From positions 1-13,900 of the forward strand of contig JBHLNT010000109.1 in the NCBI GenBank assembly GCA_048941265.1: a stretch of DNA of 13,900 bases. The letters are read 5' to 3'. The notes beneath the pieces were generated by a model that made no database searches, was not told where the DNA came from, and was given only the letters and a program-made list of their open reading frames with translations. The stretch is from Promethearchaeota archaeon. Its GTDB lineage: Archaea; Asgardarchaeota; Lokiarchaeia; Sigyniarchaeales; SOKP01. This document shows, one piece after another, positions 1 to 13,900 of the stretch. The stretch's first letter is position 1. Every line of letters begins with the position of its first letter. Both the position numbers and the translations under genes were made by a program.

Positions 1-132
1 GCAAGAGATGAAAATTTTGACCTTGTTATAATAGGAGAAAAGGTACACCACTCTATATTAGATAATTTATTCGGTTCAGTGCCAACACATATAATTAATG
101 ATACAGACAGTGATGTTTTAGTATTACATTAA
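1..132 (+). CDS. Universal stress protein (USP family), C-terminal fragment; 5' end outside the window
   Basis: Frame 1 translates ARDENFDLVIIGEKVHHSILDNLFGSVPTHIINDTDSDVLVLH* (TAA 130-132), matching the USP C-terminal pattern DLvviG-x(~12)-GSV-x(~10)-VLV. Not in the ORF track. Confidence 0.85.
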   Translation, partial: ARDENFDLVIIGEKVHHSILDNLFGSVPTHIINDTDSDVLVLH

Positions 133-173
133 TTTTACGATTTTTTATATATCTTTAATTTTTTTAAATTTTT
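133..173 (+). terminator. T-rich tracts after the USP stop, candidate archaeal oligo-T terminator
   Basis: Several T4-T7 runs follow TAA 132. Weak evidence in such an AT-rich genome. Confidence 0.3.
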
Positions 174-192
174 ATCCATTGCGGTGAAAATT

Positions 193-321
193 ATGGCAAG
201 CAAAAAAAAATTAAGATTTTGTTTTTATTGTGGTTCATTATTACCTGATTTCAATGAAATTAAAAACAACCATTGTCCATATTGTGGAGTTAAATTACCA
301 TATAAAAATAACAAAGAATAA
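193..321 (+). CDS. 42-aa zinc-ribbon / rubredoxin-like microprotein
   Basis: MASKKKLRFCFYCGSLLPDFNEIKNNHCPYCGVKLPYKNNKE*; two knuckles, CFYCG and CPYCG; archaeal SD GGTGA at 183-187, 5 nt before the ATG. Not in the ORF track. Confidence 0.8.
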   Translation: MASKKKLRFCFYCGSLLPDFNEIKNNHCPYCGVKLPYKNNKE

Positions 322-331
322 GAAAAAAAGA

Positions 332-1573
332 TTAATAATTTTCATTTTTTATCTTAGATGGTATTTTCTTAACTTCTTTAGCAAGTTTAGAAGCAAGTAA
401 TTCGCCTTTTTCTAGTTGATCATTCTTTGGAAAACCTCTATAAATTATTGGATCAGAGATATCCCATTCCATATTATTTGATAAATCATCAAAAACTTTT
501 TTAGCACCTCCACTCCATCCATAGGACCCAAAGAATAGCACCTTTTTATACTTCATACGTTTTTTGCTTAAAAGCTCCATTAAATATTTCATTGGAGGGA
601 ACATTTCATATTCATAAGTAGGAGCTCCTATTATTAATCCTGCTGATTTATATATATCGGATAATATAAAAGAAGGATTTTCATTAGGGACTCGATGAAT
701 TGTAACAGGAACTCCTTCTTTAGCTATTCCACTAAGAATCGCTTCAAGCATCGCTTCTGTGTTGCCATACATACTACCCCACACCATACAAATTTCGGGT
801 TCAGCAAAATCTCTATTATAATTTGCGTAGCGTTGATACTTTCTGATGACAACATCAGGTTTACCTCTCCAAATTAAACCATGCGATGGAGCAATCATCC
901 TAATATCCAAATTTTTTAATGAATCAATTGCTTTTATAACACTTGGAGAGAACATTGCAATTATATTTGCGTAATATCGTAGCATTTCCTGTTCCCAGTA
1001 AGTTTTATGATCTTCAGGAGTCTCATCATCAAATATACTGCCACGATGGACTCCAAATGCACCAAATGCGTCTCCAGAAAATAAAATTTTAGAGTCAGCT
1101 TCGTAAGTAACCATAGTCTCAGGCCAATGTACATTAGGGATTTCAGTAAAAATAAATTTCTTATTTTGGCCCAGATCTAGTTGATCCCCAGTCTTAACAA
1201 CTCTCACATTTTCTGTAATCCCATAAAAACCTTCAACCAACTCAGCTCCGCGTTTTGTCGTAATAATTTCTCCACCAGGAGCAAGAAGGTCAAATAAGTA
1301 AGTAAAACCAGTATGATCGGGCTCAAGATGATTAAATACAATGTAATCAATATCCTTAACTTGTATGGGAATGGATCGTAGTTTATTTAATAATATATGA
1401 GAGGCCCCGGCCCATTCTCTAACAAGTTCTATTATTGCAATTTTATCACCTTTCACGATATATGAATTTAAAGCAACACCATTCGGAATAGGCCAAATCC
1501 CTTCAAATAGATCTTCTGTATGGACATTTGCACCAACCCAATACACATCATCGGCTAGTTTAACAGCTCGCAC
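332..1573 (-). CDS. fprA: Flavodiiron protein (A-type flavoprotein; metallo-beta-lactamase diiron domain + flavodoxin domain), putative O2/NO reductase
   Basis: Diiron motifs NHLEPDH, VHWPE, SGDAFG, PSHG; flavodoxin motifs SMYGNT, GAPTY, FGSYGWSGGA. GTG start with GGTGA SD (tcacc 1580-1584 on +). Confidence 0.95.
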   Translation of the reverse strand: MRAVKLADDVYWVGANVHTEDLFEGIWPIPNGVALNSYIVKGDKIAIIELVREWAGASHILLNKLRSIPIQVKDIDYIVFNHLEPDHTGFTYLFDLLAPGGEIITTKRGAELVEGFYGITENVRVVKTGDQLDLGQNKKFIFTEIPNVHWPETMVTYEADSKILFSGDAFGAFGVHRGSIFDDETPEDHKTYWEQEMLRYYANIIAMFSPSVIKAIDSLKNLDIRMIAPSHGLIWRGKPDVVIRKYQRYANYNRDFAEPEICMVWGSMYGNTEAMLEAILSGIAKEGVPVTIHRVPNENPSFILSDIYKSAGLIIGAPTYEYEMFPPMKYLMELLSKKRMKYKKVLFFGSYGWSGGAKKVFDDLSNNMEWDISDPIIYRGFPKNDQLEKGELLASKLAKEVKKIPSKIKNENY

Positions 1574-1833
1574 TTATTCTCACCAAATTGGATTAATAAA
1601 ACTATGTATTTCATTATTTTAAGTGTTCTATAGTTTTCAAAAATCATATGATAATTAAATTGTTTTCTATTAAAAAATACTTTAAAATAAATTTGTAAAA
1701 AAAAATCTTCACTAATTTTAAGTTATCTAAATTTTTTTTTTTTTGCTATTTCGTTCTTTATTATAGTTGCAGTGAAAGTCGTATTAAAACTATATTTTTA
1801 TATTAATCGTTAACGAAATATACATGATGAATA

Positions 1834-2496
1834 ATGATCGATATCTTACTATTTATTACGGCCTTAATTTCAGCTATAATTTCATATTTAACCGGAGTTG
1901 TTTTCTTAATCTCATATCTTAAAGAACATAAATTTAACCGATTTTTATGGTGTATTGCTTTCATATTATATGCCATTGGTCATACAATAGCCGCAATATG
2001 TGCGACATTATCATTGGACAGTCAAACTTATCTGTTAGCGATGTGGGTATATGTAAACTTAAGCGGGGCTGGAACTACAGGACTAATATTATATTCTACA
2101 TTTCCATTTATTACAGAAAAACTTAAGTTAAAATTACTTATAACTGGCATTTTTATTGTTTTTTATGTTATTGGCAGCGCCCTTCTTGCTTTTGTACTGC
2201 CTGCTGAAAATCCATTGGCATTTGTAAATCCTACGAAACATACTCCGCTTAATAATATGAGTTGGTGGGTCGTTGAATTACTTATTCCTGTTTCTTTTTT
2301 CATCGGAATTGGATTTTTCAAGCATTACAGAATCACAGGAAGCAGATGGGGTCTCTTGATAAGTTTATCTTTTATTATATATGCAATTATCCTGTTTATC
2401 TGGCCTGTTCCTGAATTAAAACCTATATTTTACATAATACGTACCATATCTGTAACTTTACTCTGTATAGGAGGTGTATTCTTAGCCCAAGAATGA
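1834..2496 (+). CDS. Integral membrane protein with about 7 TM helices, function unknown
   Basis: 220 aa with seven hydrophobic segments of about 20 aa and short basic loops (KEHK, KLKLK, KHYR); TATA-like TTTTTATA at 1795-1802. Confidence 0.8.
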   Translation: MIDILLFITALISAIISYLTGVVFLISYLKEHKFNRFLWCIAFILYAIGHTIAAICATLSLDSQTYLLAMWVYVNLSGAGTTGLILYSTFPFITEKLKLKLLITGIFIVFYVIGSALLAFVLPAENPLAFVNPTKHTPLNNMSWWVVELLIPVSFFIGIGFFKHYRITGSRWGLLISLSFIIYAIILFIWPVPELKPIFYIIRTISVTLLCIGGVFLAQE

Positions 2497-2502
2497 TTAA
2501 TT

Positions 2503-3528
2503 TTAAAATTTATCAAACTTACTCATTAATATTTTATCGGCCACATTTTGCCGACCTCTCGATTTGAGAATGAGCCGAACGGCATAAAGTTCGTCGCTTT
2601 TTATTTTTATTTTCATATGTTTACGAATTTCTTTAAAAATATGCTTTTCAGGTAATTTTTGTATCAGTACTTCTTCCAATAGGTCTGCAACCTTCATTAG
2701 AATAGATATTTTCTGGCGTAAGAAAATAATCGCAGCATCATTATTACCCGTTTTTTGTGCATCTTGAAGATATCTCCGTATAGCATCATGAGCATCTTTA
2801 GAAATTTCACCAGTCTCTACAATTCCATATTTCATATTGATAACATAACTTCCAGGAGCTAAATCAGCACATTCATCTTTTACAATCAGATCATTATCAA
2901 AGATAAAGATATCGAGAAAGATCCTTTTAAATATGGAAAGTAGAGCAGTTGAGGAATCAAAATCTCCACATAAGACAAGAGGATTTTGTTGTAATAAACA
3001 CGAGATCATATCAATCATAATTTCTCCAAAGACTTTACAGGCTCCACTAAGAGTTAATTCTTTAGAAGCAACCAATTCCAAGATACTGATTTCTTTTCTT
3101 AACTTTTCAAATTTATTATTAAATTCAAGAAAAATTTTTTTTAGTTCTTCATATTTCTGAAAAATTTCAGTGTCTTTACTGTCATCTGCAATATATAAGC
3201 TTTTAAATATATTAGTGCGGTTAGCAATTCTTTCAGCGGCTTCCTTTAATAGATCATACAGTTTTTCATTGTTAAAACTAATTTCAGTAATTACTGAAAG
3301 CATTACCATTTCGTGATTTCCTCTAGCCCATAGGGAAGGGATCATAAAATTAATATTTGTGATTTTTAGATTATCATCTTTTAGAATAAACTCAAAAAAA
3401 GGATCCTCTGCTTCGAGATCAAATAATCCTTTTATTGTGTTCTTTATTTTACTTGGAACCTTTTCTGGAAAAGATAAAAAAATACTTGGTCCTTTGATAA
3501 CATCAAAATAAGATAATACAAATTGCAT
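2503..3528 (-). CDS. DENN-superfamily protein (longin/uDENN + cDENN + helical dDENN-like), folliculin/SMCR8/NPRL2-like eukaryotic signature protein
   Basis: N-terminal LSYFDVIKGP (F-x4-GP), FMIPSLWARGNHEMVMLSVI (ARG motif), central VFGEIMIDMISCLLQQNPLVLCG, helical C-terminus; all resemble recalled folliculin/SMCR8 segments. Confidence 0.7.
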   Translation of the reverse strand: MQFVLSYFDVIKGPSIFLSFPEKVPSKIKNTIKGLFDLEAEDPFFEFILKDDNLKITNINFMIPSLWARGNHEMVMLSVITEISFNNEKLYDLLKEAAERIANRTNIFKSLYIADDSKDTEIFQKYEELKKIFLEFNNKFEKLRKEISILELVASKELTLSGACKVFGEIMIDMISCLLQQNPLVLCGDFDSSTALLSIFKRIFLDIFIFDNDLIVKDECADLAPGSYVINMKYGIVETGEISKDAHDAIRRYLQDAQKTGNNDAAIIFLRQKISILMKVADLLEEVLIQKLPEKHIFKEIRKHMKIKIKSDELYAVRLILKSRGRQNVADKILMSKFDKF

Positions 3529-3676
3529 CTGTAATTTAACTCTTTTCCCATTTCTTTAGAGAATTTTTTTGGAAGCGTTTATGAAAATATAAAAATTGAA
3601 CTATTTAATGTTTTTTAAAATTGATAACATATATGAAAGAATATAATCTATGTGATTTACTTAAGACCAAATAAAA

Positions 3677-4264
3677 TTACTTTATATTTGAAAAATCTTC
3701 AAATTCAAATTGATTGAATTTATTAGTATAAATAAAATCTTTCAAAGGAAATCTTCCAGGTCTTCTTGCTTCTGTTTTTTTCATTAGATCAGTTAATTCA
3801 GGATACACTTTATTAGATTTTTTACCGATAATAATAAGAGAAATAATCCTCATATCATGCGGGATTTCAAGAATCTTTTTTACAATATTTTCCTCGAAGC
3901 CTGCAATAGGATGAGCAACTAAACCCAGTTCCGTAGCCCTTAATATCAAGAAACCTGTTGCAATTCCAGTATCGAATAAGTAATAAAGGCGTTCTTTAAT
4001 AATACAATCATTCTTCATGTTACTAAATACTACAATTATCATTGAGGCTCGCTGAATCCATTGATTTCCGGGAATAATGCTAGTAAAAAGTTTTTTTAAT
4101 TGATCCTCGTTGTATACAAAAACAAATCGCCAAGGCTGCGAATTTTTACAAGACGGTGCCATCTGTGCAGATTTAGCTAATTCTGTAATTAAATCCTTGG
4201 TTATTTGAACAGGATCAAGAGATCGGAAGCTTCTTCGTATTCTTATTGTTTCTTTTACATCCAT
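3677..4264 (-). CDS. Nitroreductase family flavoprotein (FMN-dependent)
   Basis: IRRSFRS, AQMAPSCKNSQPWRF and DTGIATGFLILRATELGLVAHPIAGF match the nitroreductase consensus. Confidence 0.93.
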   Translation of the reverse strand: MDVKETIRIRRSFRSLDPVQITKDLITELAKSAQMAPSCKNSQPWRFVFVYNEDQLKKLFTSIIPGNQWIQRASMIIVVFSNMKNDCIIKERLYYLFDTGIATGFLILRATELGLVAHPIAGFEENIVKKILEIPHDMRIISLIIIGKKSNKVYPELTDLMKKTEARRPGRFPLKDFIYTNKFNQFEFEDFSNIK

Positions 4265-4662
4265 TAAATTTTAACCCATGAACATTATTTAATTTAATAA
4301 ATAACATTATCTGTTTGATAAAATTAAACGCAGAATTTCAATCTTTTCCTTTCAATTATTTTTAAATTAAAGAGAAAAACAATCATAATTTATAAGGAAA
4401 ATCTTATAGATAAAGCGATTAAATAATAGAATTTGAAAAACAATTTATCTTAAATCACATTAAATTAAGAAGTATTGGCCAATTTAACAAAATAAAAATG
4501 ATTTTTGAAAATTTGGAATTTAATAAGAAAATCGAATATTTAATTGACTCATTAATTAACAAATTATTAGGTTAATGTTTATAAATTTATTTAATTCTTT
4601 GTGTTTTAGTAATTATTACATGTTAGAAAAAAATAATTTCAAAACTTAACAGAGGAATAAAA

Positions 4663-5820
4663 TTGAAGTTAGGATCAATAAAAGGAATTGAAATAAAATT
4701 ACATTTCTCCACGTTAGTTATAGTAGGATTAGTAGGATTTTATTCAGCTACATTCTTATTAAGTCTTGATCCAAAAGCTACATTAACAGAATTGATAATA
4801 GTTGCGATTTTAAATGGGATTATAATTATTTTTTCTATCCTAATTCATGAATTAACTCATTCTTTGATGTCATTACATTATGGCCTTAAAGTCAGTGAGA
4901 TTGAACTATATCTTTTTGGGGGCGTCTCTAAAATAGAGGAAGAACCAGTAACACCTAAAAGTGAATTAATTATTTCAGTATTAGGTCCGATCAGTTCATT
5001 AATTTTAGGAGGCATATTCCTAATCTTTTTCGGTTTGATAGGAAATGCTTTACCTGCTTGGTTATACGTAACTTTATTATACTCTGGAATAACTAATATT
5101 GGACTTGGTGTTTTTAACTTATTACCTGCATTTCCTATGGATGGTGGAAGGGTACTAAGAGCATACTTATGGAATAAAAGAAGTAACATTATTTCTGCAA
5201 CCAAAACCGCGTCTAGGATTGGTGTTTTTTTAGGCTATTCCCTCATTGTTATTGGATTTATTCAGATCTTATTTACAGGGATTTTTGCGGGGATCTGGTT
5301 AATATTAATAGGATCTTTTATTAATACGTCAGCAAGAAAATCTTATATTCAGACTGTAGATGATGTAACATTATCTCGTCTCAGTGTAAGGAATATTATA
5401 GGAGCATTGAACTTAAGAGACGTTATAGCAACTTTAAAATTGGAAATACCGTTTAATATGGTAATAAATGATGCTATAAGGAATTTTTTCATACCCTATA
5501 AAAAAGTATTTTTTCCAGTCATAAGAGGAAACGAGATCACTGGAATAATTCATATAGAAGATATAAAGAAAGTTCCTGTTGAAGAGAGATCACAATTAAT
5601 AGTCGGTTATATTGAGAAACCTCTATCAAACTTTCCATCTATTTATATCGAAGAAACAGGAAAAACTGCGTTAAAAAAGTTAATAGAAATGAAAACCTAT
5701 CCACATGTTATAGTCGTGAGAAAACAAGAAGATAACCAAATTATCGGTTTTATAAATGAACAAGATATATATACGGCAATAAAGTTCTGTGAATTGCATC
5801 CAGAAACTTGTCAGATATAG
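4663..5820 (+). CDS. Site-2 protease (peptidase M50, intramembrane Zn metalloprotease) with C-terminal CBS-like domain pair
   Basis: HELTH (HExxH), LYLFGGVS, FNLLPAFPMDGGRVLRA; C-terminal FPVIRGNEITGIIHIEDI and IIGFINEQDI are CBS-like. TTG start with AGAGGA upstream. Confidence 0.93.
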   Translation: MKLGSIKGIEIKLHFSTLVIVGLVGFYSATFLLSLDPKATLTELIIVAILNGIIIIFSILIHELTHSLMSLHYGLKVSEIELYLFGGVSKIEEEPVTPKSELIISVLGPISSLILGGIFLIFFGLIGNALPAWLYVTLLYSGITNIGLGVFNLLPAFPMDGGRVLRAYLWNKRSNIISATKTASRIGVFLGYSLIVIGFIQILFTGIFAGIWLILIGSFINTSARKSYIQTVDDVTLSRLSVRNIIGALNLRDVIATLKLEIPFNMVINDAIRNFFIPYKKVFFPVIRGNEITGIIHIEDIKKVPVEERSQLIVGYIEKPLSNFPSIYIEETGKTALKKLIEMKTYPHVIVVRKQEDNQIIGFINEQDIYTAIKFCELHPETCQI

Positions 5821-6441
5821 TATAATTTTTTAATAATATTTCTTAGCTCCTCTTTAATTCTTTTCTAACATAGAATCGGAATTTTATTTTAAAATTTTCT
5901 CCACTATTAATAATAAACATTTCCCTAAATCTAATTTTTGTGGAAATACAAAACCACTTAAGGATAAGTTAAGAGATTCATATACATTTACTTACTGAAA
6001 CTATAGAACATCCCACAGTATCTGAATTTAAAAATTTAAGCAAGATGGAAAATTAGAGGCAAAAAAAGGATAATAAATAAGTTTCAATTAAAGATTTGAG
6101 TTAATAAACTTAATTTAATTAATTGGAAATTTAAATTTTAAAGATTTTATTCCCATTTTGAAAAATCTTAAATAATAAAAATCATACTATTATTATAGAT
6201 AAAAATATGATTTGATATTTACCAATCTCAGTTTTTCTTATAGATTGAAAATTTCCCTTTGCATTTAACAAATCATCTCAATATAAGATAATAATTACAA
6301 TTACTTGATTGATTAAGGGATATTATTTTTTATTATTTCAACAGAAAAATTGACTTTATCATATTACGACATAGTTATTGCATACATATTGGGAAAAATC
6401 TTTTAAAAATTATTTTAAAGAGATAAATCTTCTGAAATACA

Positions 6442-6460
6442 GAAAAAAACCCTATAAATT
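6442..6460 (+). promoter_or_regulatory. Candidate BRE/TATA promoter for a leaderless transcript of the 6484-8704 operon
   Basis: GAAAAAAACCCTATAAATT; TATAAA at 6453-6458 ends 25 nt before ATG 6484, which has no properly spaced SD. Confidence 0.4.
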
Positions 6461-6483
6461 AAAGAAATAAATCAGTTTTAGGA

Positions 6484-6774
6484 ATGAAAAAATATTATTG
6501 TACCAAATGTAAAAGAAATCATTATCGTGGAAAAATATATGAAAATCATTTAAACTATAGAGAGATTAAAAATAAAAAACTTAATCCAAATCATAAAAAA
6601 AAAAAGTCTATTCCCTCAGATAGATTTATTGAATTTGATATTAACGAACTTCGGCCTATTGCTCGGCGTCAAATTCGAACGTTGGTTATGAAAATGAATC
6701 ACACTAAAAATTTTAGATTATATACAAAAGAGATTAATAAAATTATACTTCATGAAAAAGATTTATTAATGTGA
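6484..6774 (+). CDS. Small basic protein with N-terminal putative CCHH zinc finger
   Basis: CTKCKRNHYRGKIYENH = C-x2-C-x3-H-x8-H, Lys-rich linker, amphipathic helical C-terminus; stop overlaps the next start (GTGA 6771-6774). Confidence 0.75.
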   Translation: MKKYYCTKCKRNHYRGKIYENHLNYREIKNKKLNPNHKKKKSIPSDRFIEFDINELRPIARRQIRTLVMKMNHTKNFRLYTKEINKIILHEKDLLM

Positions 6775-8105
6775 AAAAGTTGCGGATTAAAATTTTTGAA
6801 GAATTGCTACCATTGGTAAATGTTTTTAAGACTATTGAAAAATCAATCAAATCTAAATTTAGAATCTCCAATAACTCTCAAATGTTCAAAAACTCTTTTC
6901 TAATCATAGCAATAAACCAAGAAAGTTATGCATTAATTATTCGTGGGTCCAAAGGAATACTGAAAAATAGATTAATAATTTCAGTAGTCGTATTAGATGT
7001 AAATGCAATTCCGATACTTTTAAAATCTAAAAAAAATCTGAAAGTCATTGAAAATTACTTATATGAATTGGTTATAACAGAATTTAATAATAAAGTACTC
7101 GATCCATTTAAAAAAATATTAGTTGAAAGCAAAGTTAATTCACAACATAAAAATAAGATTTTAATCGCTGAAAGGAATGTTTTAAATCAAATATTACAAG
7201 TTTTATACGAGGAATTTAATTATAATGATGATTTAATGAAATTTCCTTTTTCTGTCTTCAATATTGACAGGACTTGGGAATTTTGGGTAAAAATTTATGG
7301 TAAATATTTAAAGAAAATAGAAACTACTATAGTAAAAAGTAATAAAAACGCAATTAAAACCTATAAATATTATGATTTTGCTCTACCAAAAGAATTTTTT
7401 CCAAGAATTATTGATTTAATTATAATAGAGAATTCAAAAGGAACAAAGAATTCGATAAATATAAGAGAAACTAAAGAATTGGATAAAGAAGCGGATACAG
7501 ATGATAATTTCAAAAAGTCTGTAAAAAGGATTGGATTTATTTATGCTTATAAAAAACGAAGCCCAATGAGGCTTATTGATGTTCTTAAATTAACTGAAGA
7601 GGTAATAAAATTCATTCATGTATTTAAGAATAAAAGTATTAACAAAGATACCGAAATAAAACCAGTTATAATCTTATTATCCCTTTATGGATATGAGAAA
7701 AGAATAGGGAAATATTTGAGAGACCATTTGCATCATGACTATAAACACTTTATTCCGATATTTATTGCACCTCCAATAGATAATGAAATCTGGCATAATT
7801 TTGATGCGAATAAGGATTTAAGTCAAGAAGATGAAGTAGCTAAAAATAGAGCGAAACAATATATAAATCTCTATAAAAAAGATTCAAAAAGTTATAAATA
7901 TATTAAACACAATATACAAGATGCAAAAGAGAATTATAGTGAAATCCTAGATAGGGAGAAAGAAGCGAAAGAAAATTTTGAATTTGTTGATAGATGGTAT
8001 AAAATCTTAAATATTGACAAATTAAGTGAACTGTTAAATGTAATGGACGATAAGCATAAGGATCAAGATGAAATTGATAAAATTAAAATTTTAAGTGAAT
8101 GGTAA
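6771..8105 (+). CDS. Hypothetical protein with probable degenerate PD-(D/E)xK (Mrr/restriction-endonuclease-like) domain
   Basis: 444-aa ORF coupled to both neighbours. RIIDLIII...IGFIYAYKK..PMRLIDVLKL...VIILLSLYGYEKRIGKYL follows the motif order of Mrr-type domains but lacks the E/Q of (E/Q)xK. The CDS is solid; the fold call is tentative. Confidence 0.6.
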   Translation: MKKLRIKIFEELLPLVNVFKTIEKSIKSKFRISNNSQMFKNSFLIIAINQESYALIIRGSKGILKNRLIISVVVLDVNAIPILLKSKKNLKVIENYLYELVITEFNNKVLDPFKKILVESKVNSQHKNKILIAERNVLNQILQVLYEEFNYNDDLMKFPFSVFNIDRTWEFWVKIYGKYLKKIETTIVKSNKNAIKTYKYYDFALPKEFFPRIIDLIIIENSKGTKNSINIRETKELDKEADTDDNFKKSVKRIGFIYAYKKRSPMRLIDVLKLTEEVIKFIHVFKNKSINKDTEIKPVIILLSLYGYEKRIGKYLRDHLHHDYKHFIPIFIAPPIDNEIWHNFDANKDLSQEDEVAKNRAKQYINLYKKDSKSYKYIKHNIQDAKENYSEILDREKEAKENFEFVDRWYKILNIDKLSELLNVMDDKHKDQDEIDKIKILSEW

Positions 8106-8704
8106 TGTCTAAATTGAAATTGGATTATGAAATAAATAATGTCGTCTCAACAGTTAAATTAGAAATTTCAGAAAGATTAGATCTTATAAAAATAGCGCGT
8201 AAAGCTCCTGAGTCAGAATATAATCCTGAGAAATTCCCAGGATTAATATTAAGATTAGAGGATCCTAAAGCATCTTTTCTAATATTTTCAACGGGTAGTA
8301 TGGTAATAACTGGACTTAAAAATGTTTTATTGGTTGAAAATGCAGTAAAGAATCTATTTAAAATGCTTAAAAAATTTGGATTAAAATTACCTGAACCCAC
8401 AATCAAAATTGAGAATTTAGTGGCAAGTGGAGATTTACACACCTCTATAGATTTAAATAAAGCGGTTATTTTTATGGACTTCGCAATGTACGAACCAGAG
8501 GTTTTCCCAGGCCTAATTTACCATATGAAAGACCCTAAAGCCGTATTTCTAATTTTTTCAACAGGTAAAATAGTATGCACTGGAGTAAAAGATGAAGAAA
8601 GTATTAAGGAGGCCATTTTAAAATTAAATCAGGAAATTTATGAACTTAATTTAACATATGAGTCTCCTGTTGATGAAGAATATGAAGAAATTTATTTTTT
8701 GTAG
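8105..8704 (+). CDS. tbp: TATA-box-binding protein (archaeal type, probably a secondary paralog)
   Basis: Two repeats: NVVST...YNPEKFPGLILR..PKASFLIFSTG and NLVAS...YEPEVFPGLIY...PKAVFLIFSTGKIVCTG; acidic tail DEEYEEIYFL. ATG 8105 overlaps the upstream stop (TAATG); ATG 8099 is an in-frame alternative. Confidence 0.97.
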   Translation: MSKLKLDYEINNVVSTVKLEISERLDLIKIARKAPESEYNPEKFPGLILRLEDPKASFLIFSTGSMVITGLKNVLLVENAVKNLFKMLKKFGLKLPEPTIKIENLVASGDLHTSIDLNKAVIFMDFAMYEPEVFPGLIYHMKDPKAVFLIFSTGKIVCTGVKDEESIKEAILKLNQEIYELNLTYESPVDEEYEEIYFL

Positions 8705-8774
8705 CCTATTCCTTAATAATAATTAATAATATTAATTAAACTCGGAGATGGGGAGAAATAGTAAGTGTTTTCTC

Positions 8775-9356
8775 TTAATGAATCCAACTTCTTTTTTTAT
8801 CATAAAAGATAACGTGAACTGGATTTTCATTATTATTTATATTTATAACTTCATTTAAGATTGGCTTCTTTTTCTTTAAAATATTATGATTAATTTCCCA
8901 TATTTTTGACTCTTTTATGATAATGCAGAAAACTCCTTTTTTTCTAAGAAAATGATTATATAAAAACCGGTAAAAATGAAGTAACTGAATTTCTTTTGGA
9001 GAATATTCCTTTAATCTGCTAACGATTACGAGATCAAATTTACCGTGTCTAAGTAGAAAATCTAAAAGAGAAGATCCATCAAAGGCATTGACATAATAAG
9101 TTTTAAAATTCTCGAAGGCTTTATTTCTCTCTTTAATTAAATCTAATGTTTTCTTGGATTTATCTGTTATAAGAAATTGCGATTCAGGAAAAAGGTTGAA
9201 TAATCGCTCTAATTCTTTACCTAAAATTCCACCTATAATTAGAATTTTATTAGTTTTGAGGTTGATTCCGGATATAAGGATTCTTAAAAACTTATCTAAA
9301 TTCTCTTTAGTATTAAATAAAGAAAAATTACTGTTATTCTCAATTTTGGAGTACAT
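8775..9356 (-). CDS. Class I SAM-dependent methyltransferase-fold protein, degenerate
   Basis: Motif order KILIIGGILG (I), LITDKS (II), YYVNAFD (III), KFDLVIVS (IV), FLRKKGVFCI (VI); SD GGAGGT (acctcc 9365-9370 on +). Confidence 0.7.
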   Translation of the reverse strand: MYSKIENNSNFSLFNTKENLDKFLRILISGINLKTNKILIIGGILGKELERLFNLFPESQFLITDKSKKTLDLIKERNKAFENFKTYYVNAFDGSSLLDFLLRHGKFDLVIVSRLKEYSPKEIQLLHFYRFLYNHFLRKKGVFCIIIKESKIWEINHNILKKKKPILNEVININNNENPVHVIFYDKKRSWIH

Positions 9357-9545
9357 TAATTTTAACCTCCCATTAGTTTTTATAAAGAAATTTTATGTTA
9401 TTTAATTTTATACTTACATTTCATAATTCAGATACCCAGATTGGGGAAAATTTCGTTCATGAAATAACATTCCATAAGGTAGATACTCAGAAAATGGTTC
9501 GACACCATTTAGGAGTATTCTTTAAAATTGAAAGCAAGAATAATG

Positions 9546-9785
9546 TTATAATTTCCTTACTAAAATTTGTTTTGAAGCCTCAATAATTTCAATTCTAGGC
9601 AATTCTTGAATTTTTTTTACAAGATCTACTTGATTTTTTACTGTCCTCCAATTTGACTTAGCTAAGCCCGAAATTTCGCTAATCGTGTGAAATTTACCAT
9701 CTTCCAAGGCATTGTAAATACCCTCTATAATTTTCAGTGTTGTTTTTCTTTGAGCAGATTCATTTTGACTAATGTACTTCACCAT
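9546..9785 (-). CDS. Small winged helix-turn-helix DNA-binding protein
   Basis: IIEGIYNALEDGKFHTISEISGLAKSNWRTVKNQVDLV is a three-helix HTH pattern, followed by a beta-hairpin wing IEIIEASKQILVRK. Confidence 0.8.
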   Translation of the reverse strand: MVKYISQNESAQRKTTLKIIEGIYNALEDGKFHTISEISGLAKSNWRTVKNQVDLVKKIQELPRIEIIEASKQILVRKL

Positions 9786-9840
9786 TTAATAGGTAGGAAA
9801 ACACAATATTCTTCTTATTGTAGGATAAAATTTCTAAAAG

Positions 9841-9856
9841 TATATAAATGTTTTTA
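9841..9856 (-). promoter_or_regulatory. Candidate BRE/TATA promoter of the wHTH gene
   Basis: Minus strand reads TAAAAACATTTATATA; consensus TTTATATA occupies 9841-9848, 55 nt upstream of the start codon. Confidence 0.5.
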
Positions 9857-10142
9857 TTTATGATAAGGTTATAAGTTTTAGTAATAAAGTTATAATTTTT
9901 TATAATATGTTTATGCTTTATTCAAAATTCTATTTAATTAAATAGATAATAGTTTTATATTTATTTAAATGATCGTTAAATTTATATTAGTAGTTTAGTT
10001 ATAATTATCTGGATTTAGATACTTTTATGATAAACATGCATACTATAAGGAAGAATATGTCTGTTTTTAAAATTAAAACATCGGATTGTGAATTTAGCAC
10101 AAGCCGATATTTTGAATAATTTTGAAATTGTTCACATTTATA

Positions 10143-10163
10143 CTCCTAAAAACTCTTAGGAGG
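10143..10163 (+). promoter_or_regulatory. Shine-Dalgarno AGGAGG (10158-10163) largely sequestered in a perfect 7-bp hairpin
   Basis: CTCCTAA (10143-10149), loop AAACTC, TTAGGAG (10156-10162); ATG 10171 follows the SD by 7 nt. Confidence 0.6.
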
Positions 10164-10170
10164 CGATTTT

Positions 10171-11916
10171 ATGAAAGAAAATAAACATTATATATCAAAA
10201 AAGGTAATAAGGAAAAAGATATTAACTGCTTGTATTGGTCAATGTGTACATGTAGCAGGAATTCATAACTTTATTAATATTGCTCAAAAGTTAGGAAATG
10301 AATGTATATTCTTAGGTCCGGCAACTTCAATTTCAACTATTATTAATGAAATTCGAAAATGCAAACCTGATATTGTAGGTCTTAGCTATCGTTTAACTTC
10401 CTCAACCCTTAGACCTTTACTCAAAGATTTTTTTATCCAATATGATAAATTAGAAAAAAAACCAGAAGAACTATTTTTCGCAGGGACTCCAGAAGTTGTT
10501 AAAGTAGCAAAAGAATTTAGAAAATTTTCTAAATTCTTTATTGGAGGAGAGTCCAAATTCAAACTGATTTCTATTTTAAAAAATGACTTTATTGATTCTA
10601 AGGATATAACAAAAATTCCAATGGACTTAATTTCTCGTATTAAATGGAAAAAGCCATATCCGATTATCAGGGCTCATTTTGGATTACCAAGTTTTCAAGA
10701 AACAGTAAAAGGAATAAAAAAAATTGCTGGAGCTGAAATATTAGATGTGTTATCAATAGCACCCGATCAAAATACACAGGCAAATTATTTCCATCCAGAA
10801 GATCAAGTTAAGGAATTGTCTGGTGCTGGAGGTATACCGCTAAGAAAAAAAGAAGAATTTATTAAACTTCATAGAGCAAGGTTAAGAGGAAATCATCCAT
10901 TGCTTAGAATATATGCCGGAACACGAGATTTTATAAAATTGGCTGAATTATATCAGGATACAATTCAAAATGCCTGGGCTGCGATCCCGATTTTTTGGTT
11001 TAATCAGATGGATGGACGTGGTCCTTTAGCATTAAAAGAATCAATAAAACAGCATTTAGAAACGATTAAATGGTATGCGAAAAAGGATATTCCTGTAGAA
11101 ATTAATGATTCGCATCATTGGAGTCTCAGAGATGCCCCAGATGCTATAGCAGTAGCAGATATGTATTTAAGCGGGATAATTGCCAAGAATTTAGGAGTTA
11201 AACATTTCGTGGCTCAATTTATGTTTAATACCCCTCCTTCAAGTTCGTTTGACATGGATCTCGCAAAAATGACAGCCAAAAATGAACTTCTTCATACGTT
11301 AGTAGACGATTCGTTTAAAGTAATTAAACAAGTTCGAACAGGTTTAGCAAGTATGCCATTAAATTTGCAGAAAGCGAAAGGTCATCTTGCAGCAGCGACA
11401 TTCGTTCAACTTGCTCTTAAACCAGATATAGTCCACGTAGTGACATATTCTGAAGCTAGACATGCGGCAAAGCCAGAACATATTATTGAAAGTTGTAATA
11501 TAGTTAACCACGTTATCGACAGAACCTACTCTAGTAATATTAATTTATTTGATGATAAAATTGAACAAAGAAAAGAAGAGTTGATTCAACAAGCTAAATG
11601 GATTATTGATTTACTACCTCGATTAGCAAAAAATCCTACTGAAAAAGCGAATCCTTGGACAAATTACAAAATCCTAAACAGATTAGTAAAATATGGTATT
11701 TTCGACGCTCCTCATCTAAGGAATAATCAATTTGCTCGTGGTGAGATTAAAACAAAAATAATTGATGGTGCCTGCTATTCATGGGATCAAAACTTACAGA
11801 AAAAGCGGGATGAGATTGAAAGAATCAAGGATATTATGGCAAAATACCCCGATAAGTTCTCAAATAAAATAAAATATACTGAAAATTTATCACCCTATAA
11901 GGTGATGGAAAAATGA
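10171..11916 (+). CDS. Cobalamin-dependent mutase-like protein: N-terminal B12-binding domain fused to a glutamate mutase E-like TIM barrel
   Basis: ACIGQCVHVAG (DxHxxG variant), FLGPATS, PDIVGLSYRL and FFAG mark the B12 domain. The remainder follows the motif order of glutamate mutase epsilon (YAGTRDFIKLAE, AKNLGVKH, GLASMP..LQKAKG, VHVVTYSEA, GIFDAP). Confidence 0.8.
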   Translation: MKENKHYISKKVIRKKILTACIGQCVHVAGIHNFINIAQKLGNECIFLGPATSISTIINEIRKCKPDIVGLSYRLTSSTLRPLLKDFFIQYDKLEKKPEELFFAGTPEVVKVAKEFRKFSKFFIGGESKFKLISILKNDFIDSKDITKIPMDLISRIKWKKPYPIIRAHFGLPSFQETVKGIKKIAGAEILDVLSIAPDQNTQANYFHPEDQVKELSGAGGIPLRKKEEFIKLHRARLRGNHPLLRIYAGTRDFIKLAELYQDTIQNAWAAIPIFWFNQMDGRGPLALKESIKQHLETIKWYAKKDIPVEINDSHHWSLRDAPDAIAVADMYLSGIIAKNLGVKHFVAQFMFNTPPSSSFDMDLAKMTAKNELLHTLVDDSFKVIKQVRTGLASMPLNLQKAKGHLAAATFVQLALKPDIVHVVTYSEARHAAKPEHIIESCNIVNHVIDRTYSSNINLFDDKIEQRKEELIQQAKWIIDLLPRLAKNPTEKANPWTNYKILNRLVKYGIFDAPHLRNNQFARGEIKTKIIDGACYSWDQNLQKKRDEIERIKDIMAKYPDKFSNKIKYTENLSPYKVMEK

Positions 11917-13040
11917 GATTCTGCGTGATTGGAGCAGGATCTGGTGGACGTGCATTTGCTGCGTATCTTTCCTCAAAAGGTCAATCAGTCTCGCTATATA
12001 ATCGTTCCTATTCAAGAATAAGTGAAATTCAGCAAAAGGGAGGTATTGAGGTATCAGGAGAATTACAAGGGTTTTTTCCAATATCTTTGATTACACAAAA
12101 TATGAGATTAGCCGTAAAAAATGCAGATATTATACTTGTTGTCACGCCCGCTTTCGCTCATAAAGAGATCGCACTGAAGATCGCTCCTTTTCTAAAAAAT
12201 GGTCAAATAGTTATTCTAAATCCAGGAAGAACTTTTGGAGCTGTAGAGTTTCTTAGAAATATTGAAAAAATAAGAGGAAAAATCCCAATTTTTGTCGGAG
12301 AAACGCAAACTCTCTTGTTTACGGCAAGAGCATTAGAAGAAAATCGGGTAAATATCATTAAAATTAAAAATTCAGTAAATTTTTCTACTTTCCCAGATAA
12401 ATATTCAGATCTCATCTGGGAAATACTGAATGAATTCTTTCCTCAATTTATTCCAATAGAAGATTACCTTGAAGTTACTCTTAACAATATTGGTATGCTG
12501 ATTCACCCGGCTTTATCATTGTTCAATGCAGGTCCTATTGATTATGGAAAAAACTTTAAGTTCTATAAAGAAGGTGCTACACCACAAATTTGTCAAGTTC
12601 TCGAACAAATTGAAATCGAGCTTAACGAAATATTCCAATGTTTGGGTTTAAGACAATTAAGATACGAAAAGTGGGCGAAAAAATGTTATGGTATAAATGC
12701 AAATTGTATACACGATACAATACAACAGATTGAGGCTTATAAAGACATTAATGCTCCTAATCACTTAATAACGAGATATTTTACTGAAGATATTCCAACC
12801 GGTCTAGTGGCTATTGCATCATTAGGTCAATTTCTTGGGATTAAGACACCAACTATAGACGCTATCATTCATCTATCTAGCATAATTTGCGGCACAAATT
12901 TCTTAAAAGATGGTAGAACTATTGAACGATTGAAATTGGAAAATTACATAAAAGCTAGAATAAATAGAGAGAAATATTTAACAGAAGAATTAATTTTCAA
13001 TTTCGAAAGAAATTTAAGAACTAGTGAAGATGACATCTAA
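11913..13040 (+). CDS. NAD/NADP-dependent opine (octopine/nopaline) dehydrogenase family protein
   Basis: Rossmann VIGAGSGG, ADIILVVTPAFAH, ILNPGRTFGA, LNNIGMLIHP, FKFYKEG and the family signature RYFTEDIPTGLV; ATGA overlap with the mutase gene. Confidence 0.92.
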   Translation: MRFCVIGAGSGGRAFAAYLSSKGQSVSLYNRSYSRISEIQQKGGIEVSGELQGFFPISLITQNMRLAVKNADIILVVTPAFAHKEIALKIAPFLKNGQIVILNPGRTFGAVEFLRNIEKIRGKIPIFVGETQTLLFTARALEENRVNIIKIKNSVNFSTFPDKYSDLIWEILNEFFPQFIPIEDYLEVTLNNIGMLIHPALSLFNAGPIDYGKNFKFYKEGATPQICQVLEQIEIELNEIFQCLGLRQLRYEKWAKKCYGINANCIHDTIQQIEAYKDINAPNHLITRYFTEDIPTGLVAIASLGQFLGIKTPTIDAIIHLSSIICGTNFLKDGRTIERLKLENYIKARINREKYLTEELIFNFERNLRTSEDDI

Positions 13041-13100
13041 TCCTCATTAGTTCTTGAAAGAAAACATATCTTTTAGATGGATGTAATTTAAAAAATAATA

Positions 13101-13140
13101 AAATAGGAAAAGGATTACTTTTTTTTCCCTATTTAATTTT
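13101..13140. terminator. Candidate bidirectional terminator between convergent genes
   Basis: AAATAGG (13101-13107) pairs with CCTATTT (13128-13134) around an AAAAG/T8 core; T-runs on both strands nearby. Confidence 0.4.
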
Positions 13141-13231
13141 AGTTTTAGGAGGATAACTAAAAAAAAGGTTTAGGTTTGAAAAATATGATTTATCAAAATA
13201 GACTTTCCTTTTTTCTTTGCTAATTCTTTAA

Positions 13232-13900
13232 TCAGAGAATTTTCCTGATATAAATTATTGATGCAAGTAGAATTCCAGAGAAATAAAAAAAATTAACCGT
13301 CCATAAATAATGAGAAATATTTGCATAAATTTTTAAAGTATATAGCGGCCCTACACATGCAACGATTCCAATAATTATTGTCGAGATCAAAAGAGCTATT
13401 TTTTCATAGTTTTTAATTTCGCTTTTATCAAATATGAAAATTTTTAACCAAAAAACAACGCAAATGAAAGCAATAGGAGTAATTATGAAAGCGGCAATAG
13501 CTAAAAGTATTAGAAAAAATACCGCAAATTTATTTTGCCATAATTTTAATAGCTCATTTCCGGATAATTGATTTTGAAGTTGTAGTTTGGCATATTTAGA
13601 ACGTAAAGTGTAATACTTTTTCCTAATTTCTCTACCAATCTGTTTAGCACCAAATTTCCAAGTAATAGCTCTCCCTTGGACGATTGCATCTTTAAAATTA
13701 TTTTTAATAATAGGATTAATGTATAAGAAAATCAATAATGAAATAATACTGAAAATGTATATAATATTATCGATCCATGCAAATCTGTTATCCCAAATTC
13801 CATACATCAACAGTCCTCCTTCCCCAACAAAACTAGAATATATTCTATAAATGGCATAAATGTTGACTAAAAATATAATAATTATTTGGATAATAATAAA
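13232..13900 (-). CDS. Polytopic membrane protein, hypothetical; probably truncated by the window edge
   Basis: The frame stays open upstream of the track start 13810 (FIIIQIIIIFLVNIYAIYRIYSSFVGEGGL) to position 13900, adding another hydrophobic helix; at least 5-6 TM segments and a basic loop. Confidence 0.75.
   Translation of the reverse strand, partial: FIIIQIIIIFLVNIYAIYRIYSSFVGEGGLLMYGIWDNRFAWIDNIIYIFSIISLLIFLYINPIIKNNFKDAIVQGRAITWKFGAKQIGREIRKKYYTLRSKYAKLQLQNQLSGNELLKLWQNKFAVFFLILLAIAAFIITPIAFICVVFWLKIFIFDKSEIKNYEKIALLISTIIIGIVACVGPLYTLKIYANISHYLWTVNFFYFSGILLASIIYIRKIL

Follow-up and report, generated by a model that had tools for sequence, protein, structure and literature searches.

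Does the gene for a TATA-binding protein (TBP) that ends a tightly packed set of three genes in a Promethearchaeota archaeon have dedicated partners in the two genes upstream of it? The set lies at positions 6484 to 8704 of a 13,900-nt stretch of DNA (GenBank assembly GCA_048941265.1, contig JBHLNT010000109.1, positions 1 to 13,900 of the forward strand), which is referred to below as the window. It corresponds to contig C76 in a metagenome-assembled genome (MAG) of 5.0 Mb and 361 contigs, with a completeness of 91% and a contamination of 4.8%. The two upstream genes are called ORF1 and ORF2 (ORF, open reading frame). L-numbers denote loci with relatives, G-numbers denote representative genomes, and C-numbers denote contigs of the window genome, G000.

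Our answer, held tentatively and at slightly less than even confidence, is that the locus is a lineage-specific module built around an alternative TBP, with ORF1 and ORF2 acting together with that TBP, on it, or on promoter DNA. We consider that the genes were kept together by selection, because they are tightly packed, the TBP belongs to a dedicated paralog clade, ORF2 and TBP diverge in parallel, and the flanking genes change from carrier to carrier. A sequence-only reading of the window had proposed a dedicated module of this kind; the separate paralog clade, the recurrent three-gene order and the changing flanks support that part of the proposal. Co-transcription, an ORF1-ORF2 complex, any contact with TBP, and the direction of the effect are inferred. 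ORF1 and ORF2 would be made in fixed proportion with the paralog TBP, and the joint action of the three proteins would take place at promoters.

Packing of the three genes and the TBP paralog

All three genes are on the + strand. ORF1 (6484..6774) encodes a 96-aa basic protein with a CCHH zinc-knuckle-like motif; ORF2 (6771..8105) encodes 444 aa if read from GTG at 6771, or 441 aa if read from TTG at 6780; and the tbp paralog (8105..8704) encodes 199 aa with two TBP repeats and an acidic C-terminal tail. Both overlaps pointed out in the sequence-only reading are present. At GTGA (6771-6774) the ORF1 stop codon TGA occupies 6772-6774 and the GTG at 6771 opens the 444-aa frame, and at TAATG (8103-8107) the ORF2 stop codon TAA occupies 8103-8105 and the tbp ATG begins at 8105. 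A public gene call and the ESM Atlas record use the TTG at 6780; with that start the ORF1-ORF2 junction becomes a 5-nt spacer rather than a 4-nt overlap. Both starts are plausible, because relatives of ORF2 have either M-K-K-L-R-I-K or M-R-I-K at the N-terminus. There is also an in-frame ATG at 8099 for tbp, but the TBP relatives in the same clade begin with M-S-K/E, which fits the start at 8105.

Tight junctions were found in relatives as well. The ORF1-ORF2 junction of L035 is the identical GTGA. Elsewhere ORF1 and ORF2 overlap by 10-20 nt: the overlap is 10 nt in L036, in which the ORF2 stop is 5 nt from an ATG of a tbp gene truncated by the contig end, and 20 nt in the distant loci L016, L037 and L039.

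The tbp product matched Pfam PF00352 in two stretches (8123-8377 and 8402-8644, + strand) with an E-value of 2e-54 and a score of 181.8 bits (cut-off 22.9). It scored below every TBP equivalog cut-off of NCBIfam, the best being NF001592 (213.2 bits vs a cut-off of 270). The closest solved structure by profile was the Sulfolobus TBP 1mp9 (E 1.7e-63). Some archaea carry several TBP genes, and the suggestion that this is one of several copies proved right: the genome has four, on contigs C56, C76, C301 and C253, and the window copy is a true extra paralog. Its best match among 40 related genomes was 62% identical, and the C56 copy in the same genome was 58% identical. In a tree of 152 rows (quick IQ-TREE, LG+G4, with support from the Shimodaira-Hasegawa-like approximate likelihood ratio test, SH-aLRT), the window TBP fell in a clade of 19 rows with a support of 99. 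The canonical C56 copy fell in a separate clade of 105 rows (SH-aLRT 98), where most of the relatives' best TBPs were placed as well. The C301 and C253 copies were on long branches, that of C253 being very divergent (branch length 3.0). The C56 protein has a long acidic N-terminal extension, and a small GTPase gene is adjacent to its gene.

Residues F44, F61, F134 and F151, which we take to be the DNA-kinking phenylalanines, and Y129-E130-P131-E132 (YEPE), presumably the C-terminal stirrup for TFB contact, were invariant in an alignment of 25 TBP sequences. Seventeen positions separated the clade from the canonical TBPs, for example K65S and R140H, both at residues invariant in the 105 canonical sequences; clade-specific differences also fall in 72-79 and 88-101. 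Judged by its residues, the window TBP is most likely a functional but specialised TATA binder that serves as an alternative general transcription factor, a role that we assign because the residues for TATA binding and bending are kept. The genome contained 23 TFIIB-repeat matches in 12 ORFs, or about 12 TFB genes beside four TBP genes; combinatorial use of TBP and TFB is therefore plausible. As had been noted, none of these is nearby: neither a tfb nor any other core informational gene was found among the 12 ORFs of the window scanned with Pfam and NCBIfam.

Recurrence of the three-gene order and its surroundings

The close ORF2 relatives (48-100% identity) comprised 29 contigs: the window, L035, and 27 from a protein collection. 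A TBP of the 19-row clade was found on 16 of them, namely the window, L036, a 15,554-bp record, and 13 others. Direct adjacency was read in the DNA of L036, and in the 15,554-bp record the two proteins have consecutive accessions (TFG27067.1 and TFG27068.1). For the others, ORF2 and TBP were on contigs of equal size: five of 3,940, 3,363, 1,826,018, 59,274 and 9,405 bp, and eight more of 29,222, 152,895, 5,014, 3,483, 4,315, 33,707, 16,418 and 11,008 bp. The six linked TBPs represented in the tree, including that of the window, were all inside the clade, and eight further linked TBPs were assigned to it through 90%-identity clusters of clade representatives. The identities of ORF2 and TBP to the window proteins fell in parallel, at 70/84, 65/85, 62/84, 60/74, 54/74, 51/73 and 48/74%. 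The gene upstream of the set varied; it encodes an M50 peptidase in the window, a nitroreductase in L035, and a small zinc-ribbon protein in L036. This last ORF (L036:309-524, + strand, 71 aa) begins M-V-E-F-C-E-N-C-G-G, and its match to the RPB9/RpoM ribbon was below threshold (E 0.006, 16.8 bits vs 25.2).

The same order could simply have been inherited, with no functional link, if a duplicate TBP gene came by chance to lie downstream of ORF2 in a recent common ancestor and the arrangement has so far not broken up. We regard this as distinctly unlikely. The carriers have diverged to 48% identity in ORF2 and 68-69% in TBP, their flanks differ, and their junctions stay within -10 to +5 nt. In contrast, the M50 peptidase of the window, which is 54-63% identical across the genus by tblastn (56-64% in another comparison), has already lost the other window genes as neighbors. 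The points that speak for inherited order are that the linkage is absent from the wider ORF2 family and that the module was present in only one of 400 representative genomes of the phylum. All carriers could be one shallow lineage.

These two points also head the observations that weigh against the module reading. Around the 48 distant ORF2 loci (L010-L034, L037, L038 and L039-L061, some places counted twice; 27-38% identity), no TBP was found within the 1.5-4 kb covered, and the gene after ORF2 was often convergent; the ORF1-ORF2 pair can thus do without a TBP of its own. The spread of the module beyond the one representative genome is known only from unbinned or non-representative contigs. 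Thirteen of the 16 linkages were deduced from the equal bp size of contigs and not from DNA that was read. No TBP was seen on the other 13 of the 29 close contigs, many of which are short or, like L035, end inside ORF2; five of these TBP-less contigs are long (51,038, 24,060, 10,246, 8,529 and 7,420 bp), and it is possible that TBP was lost or absent in some lineages. The remaining two points come from the structural comparisons described below: the matches of the nuclease-like domain of ORF2 were weak (Z no higher than 7.3, and no Foldseek E-value of 1e-3 or less), and the structure 2czr of a known TBP-interacting protein was absent among the listed rows of four fold searches with ORF2, which was also without sequence similarity to any PDB chain.

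The synteny part of the sequence-only reading therefore held for close relatives, in which the three-gene order recurs with changed flanks, but not for distant ones, in which TBP is absent beside the ORF1-ORF2 pair. Relatives of ORF1 were found just upstream of relatives of ORF2 at L010, L016, L020, L035, L036, L037, L039, L047 and L052. Because the ORF1-ORF2 pair is widespread without an adjacent TBP, the pair is the older unit, which TBP joined in one sublineage only. The older coupled pair would have gained a duplicated TBP gene directly downstream, and the trio would then have been kept vertically in one Loki-type sublineage. At one distant locus (L011:3015-3905, in G013), the gene downstream of the ORF2 relative starts like gelsolin or villin, as judged by eye only.

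No ORF2 relative of at least 48% identity was found in 61 representative genomes of relatives, 135 of the family, 161 of the class, or 400 of the phylum; the closest among the 400 was 38% identical (G008, same genus). Because the best matches of other window genes in the genus showed 54-77% identity whereas ORF2 reached only 38%, we conclude that the carriers of the module are relatives outside the representative genomes searched. An insertion test was tried by seeking the M50 peptidase and methyltransferase flanks in nine other genomes of the genus, and no empty site could be defined; only the neighborhood of the methyltransferase and B12-protein genes recurred (G004 and G006). Public sequence data sets containing part of window:6300-8800 comprised nine DNA-type metagenome rows from four studies, with no RNA runs among them.

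The gap that the sequence-only reading had described as 663 bp of non-coding DNA before the three genes is of that length (5821-6483). It is not featureless, since it contains a conserved non-coding block (6155..6375, + strand), a possible promoter or leader, which travels with the module in L035 and in part in L036 and so favors the module reading. In 40-column windows over 6183-6381 the block was 78-98% identical to L035, whereas the gap outside the block was 2-55% identical; the coding DNA of ORF1-ORF2 was 83.7% identical. The BRE/TATA-like stretch GAAAAATCTTAAATAA (BRE, B recognition element) is located near 6160-6180, at the start of the block. In the more distant L036, the 5' part of the block (about 6155-6245) and the AAGGGATATT motif are likewise upstream of ORF1. 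There is a second TATA-like string, TATAAAT, at 6454-6460, approximately 25 nt before the ORF1 ATG. The block is presumably the promoter, leader or operator of the module.

Other candidate roles for the block were rejected. As a structured RNA, it gave a fold z of -0.31 as a single sequence, a three-sequence consensus of 7 pairs with 0 compensatory changes, and no Rfam match; as a repeat element, it was matched at only one other place in the genome, and weakly (78% over 54 nt, E 0.0015). A sigma-70 promoter scan gave 30 sites where 25.7 were expected, and that model is irrelevant for an archaeon. An 18-codon frame started by TTG (window 6350-6406) ends ATC-TTT-TAA in both the window and L035, with 9 of the 18 residues identical; the frame may be a small upstream ORF or a chance occurrence.

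The neighboring genes of the window encode a flavodiiron-type protein, a nitroreductase, the M50 peptidase (with a CBS domain), a methyltransferase, a B12-domain protein, and an octopine-dehydrogenase-like protein. The methyltransferase gene (8775-9356) adjoins the B12-binding gene, an adjacency kept in G004 and G006. Within 10171-13040, the B12-binding, methylaspartate-mutase-E-like gene (581 aa) overlaps the octopine-dehydrogenase-like gene by 4 nt (11913-11916). The G+C content of the module is 22-27%, compared with 26-36% for the flanks; the difference is small, and the region contains much DNA that is non-coding or evolves fast.

The ORF1 and ORF2 proteins

The N-terminal motif of ORF1, C6-x2-C9-x3-H13-x8-H22, is zinc-knuckle-like and is followed by a Lys-rich linker and a conserved C-terminal segment of helix type, L56 R57 P58 I59 A60 .. 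Q63 (L-R-P-I-A-x-R-Q). The CCHH ligand set proposed for this protein is borne out by its relatives, in which C6, C9, H13 and H22 are nearly invariant. Like classical C2H2 zinc fingers, ORF1 has Y-x-C-x2-C, a His 12 residues past the second Cys (C9..H22), and basic surroundings. Unlike them, it lacks a His or Cys 3-5 residues after H22, and H13 is the candidate for the fourth ligand; its spacing thus departs from the classical C-x2-4-C-x12-H-x3-5-H. Searches of ORF1 against Pfam and NCBIfam gave no family match, zinc-finger families of Pfam included. A search of 5.8 billion clusters yielded 18 relatives, which were of Asgard type wherever a source was named. In the module reading, ORF1 would be a nucleic-acid-binding partner of ORF2.

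ORF2 is present in single copy in the genome, and its family is limited to Promethearchaeota-type Asgard archaea. Eighteen relatives were found by word search, and a HMMER profile found 45 representatives at an E-value of 1e-3 or less among 1.84 billion proteins, many of them fragments. Pfam assigned no family to ORF2 or to 17 of its relatives, the latter searched at an E-value of 0.1 or less; only sub-threshold matches, scattered over differing families, came up. ORF2 had no NCBIfam match. A comparison of the ORF2 profile with all PDB sequences (E-value of 10 or less) returned three chance rows only, and 2czr was not among them. The ESM Atlas gave no usable feature match for ORF2; its own model is poor (predicted local distance difference test, pLDDT, 0.34), and the structure matches of that model are meaningless. 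AlphaFold2 models were better, with a pLDDT of 72.7 for the whole protein and 76.4 for residues 146-444.

The modeled protein has two domains. The N-domain (residues 1-150; 6771..7220, + strand) is a beta-alpha-beta3-alpha two-layer sandwich with a pLDDT of about 70-94. Its VIA matches were Flpp3 (Z 9.5, 91 residues aligned, root mean square deviation, rmsd, 2.7), BamC-N (9.4), Roco COR (9.3), METTL16 VCR (9.2) and KA1 (8.8); Foldseek returned AlkA-N, RnlA and the phosphoglucomutase C-domain at E-values of 0.04-0.1. In the model, the N-domain thus has a fold of the KA1 / Bet v 1 / "TBP-like" type, a broad class, and it shows no homology to TBP. Short relatives of approximately 300 aa, common in the same family, align only to ORF2 residues 146-430 and are without this domain. 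They (L013-L015, L022-L033 and L053-L061) also occur in MAGs labelled Hod- or Thorarchaeota, and no ORF1 relative was detected beside them.

The C-domain (residues 155-415; 7233..8015, + strand) has an alpha-beta-beta-beta-alpha-beta core followed by a long helical hairpin, with a disordered and variable loop at 224-247. Its best VIA matches were AF1548 (Z 7.3), Can2 (7.2), VC1899 (7.2) and NucS (6.3) at an rmsd of 3-4.4 A, a range termed "common arrangement." The match to RPB5 (Z 6.4-6.8, approximately 110 residues aligned) was no better than those to nucleases. The best Foldseek match was MspJI (E 0.044); other fold matches were restriction and defence nucleases, including Can2, Cap4, Avs3 and Shedu. 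The assignment of ORF2 to a nuclease fold can therefore be retained in part: the model has a PD-(D/E)xK-like core, but every structural match to it is weak.

An alignment of 35 ORF2 sequences showed conservation of E184, D202, R212, D215, K261, K273, E277, S304, W341 and N343. Position 215 is D in 32 and E in 2 of 34 sequences, and position 261 is K in 30 and R in 5 of 35. The catalytic (D/E)xK motif is absent: at position 259 every one of the 35 sequences has A, T, C, S or N, never an acidic residue. Because the whole family lacks the motif's central acid two residues before K261, the C-domain may be a non-catalytic scaffold and ORF2 is probably inactive as a nuclease; E184, D202 or E220 might substitute for the missing acid. 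Under the module reading, ORF2 would act as a protein- or DNA-binding scaffold.

The same structural results bear on a second explanation, that ORF1-ORF2 is an independent DNA-transaction unit, consisting of a structure-specific or damage nuclease and its zinc subunit, with which TBP merely shares a promoter and makes no contact. The purpose would be a specialised transcription programme induced under the same condition, as with TFB3 in the Sulfolobus DNA-damage response; stress-specific TFB paralogs are on record in the text of PMC7289017. We consider such co-regulation somewhat unlikely, although several facts favor it. The ORF1-ORF2 pair predates its link to TBP and in most genomes occurs without it, the PD-(D/E)xK-like core retains E184, D215 and K261/K273, and the best fold matches (AF1548, Can2, NucS and MspJI) are nucleases. 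It is opposed by the replacement of the (D/E) of (D/E)xK in 35 of 35 sequences, by the finding that repair or replication genes were not recurrent beside the pair (62 neighbors at 16 loci), and by the tight stop/start packing with tbp across 48-100% ORF2 identity, which it leaves unexplained.

The sequence-only reading had offered, as its other possibility, an accessory or defence locus that co-opted a TBP. In that case the locus would be a defence, toxin-antitoxin or mobile cassette with a nuclease-fold effector and the zinc protein as its regulator. The searches did not bear this out. PADLOC gave no match at an E-value of 0.1 or less for ORF1, ORF2 and three relatives; PHROGs matches were at chance level only, a search of 2.9 million viral contigs returned no relative, and the best BFVD fold match had an E-value of 1.2e-3 with an rmsd of 15. 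Metabolic or housekeeping genes make up the 62 neighbors of the 16 distant loci, and only two of the 62 are PIN or UPF0175 genes. No integrase, repeat or tRNA gene was seen among the scanned window ORFs or in Rfam, and one carrier contig is 1.8 Mb long and hence chromosomal. What remains in its favor is the combination of a nuclease-like fold with a small overlapping upstream partner gene, the presence of the defence nucleases named above among the fold matches, a distribution that is patchy even inside the genus, and a module G+C content slightly lower than that of the flanks. We regard this origin as very improbable, the least probable of the explanations considered here.

Comparison with known TBP partners and paralogs

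Eukaryotic TBP is controlled by TBP-associated factors (TAFs), NC2, Mot1 and TFIIA, whereas archaeal TBP is thought to act nearly alone with TFB. Asgard archaea are the closest known archaeal relatives of eukaryotes. To our knowledge their transcription factors have hardly been studied, and the TIP26 protein of Thermococcales is the sole reported archaeal TBP partner. A full-text literature search found no description of such an Asgard operon or of the ORF1 and ORF2 families. ORF1 and ORF2 are the best available candidates for TBP partners among the archaea nearest to eukaryotes, and a paralog TBP clade tied to two otherwise unknown proteins provides a concrete, testable three-protein system. 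If the link is only regulatory, the locus still defines a new Asgard-restricted family (ORF2), its zinc partner (ORF1), and a distinct TBP clade.

The sequence-only reading had named TBP-associated factors or inhibitors as possible roles for the partners. A more specific form of the module reading, which we consider a long shot, is that ORF1 and ORF2 are Asgard TAFs: ORF2, as a dedicated partner, would dock with its single "TBP-like-fold" N-domain and a catalytically dead, RPB5-jaw-like domain on the diverged first lobe or the DNA saddle of the paralog, and ORF1 would tether the complex to DNA. If true, the nearest lineage to eukaryotes would possess, encoded in an operon, a prokaryotic equivalent of the control of TBP by factors of the TAF, NC2 and Mot1 type. 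The RPB5-jaw-like domain of ORF2 would then possibly be related to the N-terminal domain of RPB5, which is a eukaryote-specific nuclease-like fold.

The ORF2 model has the alpha-beta-beta-beta-alpha-beta order of elements of AF1548, Can2/Card1/VC1899, NucS/EndoMS and the RPB5 N-domain, and its core may be of the same type. As in members of the PD-(D/E)xK superfamily, an Asp opens beta2 (D215 in "IIDLIII") and a Lys lies just past beta3 (K261). It differs from them in its Z-scores of only 6-7.3, in the lack of the middle acid, and in having no sequence relation to the Pfam nuclease families.

Multiple copies of general transcription factors are familiar from the haloarchaeal TbpA-F/TfbA-G and the Sulfolobus TFB2/TFB3, and the window genome, with its four TBP and about 12 TFB genes, resembles them in this respect. 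According to the text of PMC7289017, extra TBP/TFB copies give promoter choice or condition-specific programmes. The haloarchaeal and Sulfolobus paralogs differ from the window TBP in that none is described as closing an operon that also encodes dedicated partners other than general transcription factors.

The closest parallel is Tk-TIP26 of Thermococcus kodakarensis (2czr), an archaeal, non-nucleolytic PD-(D/E)xK-type protein that acts on TBP. We take Tk-TIP26 to carry a zinc site, and we know of no adjacency of its gene to tbp. In the superfamily classification of PMC3424549, the TBP-interacting protein 2czr forms group 121, "proteins that interact with TBP," and the title of the TIP26 structure paper, as cited there, names inhibition of the TBP/TATA-DNA interaction. 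By analogy with TIP26, ORF1 and ORF2 would either keep TBP off DNA or steer it to particular promoters. The two systems differ in that Tk-TIP26 is one polypeptide, confined to Thermococcales, whereas the module has its zinc motif on the separate ORF1 protein. They differ also in that ORF2 has an extra N-terminal domain, and in that the case made here rests mainly on the linkage of the genes to a TBP paralog of their own.

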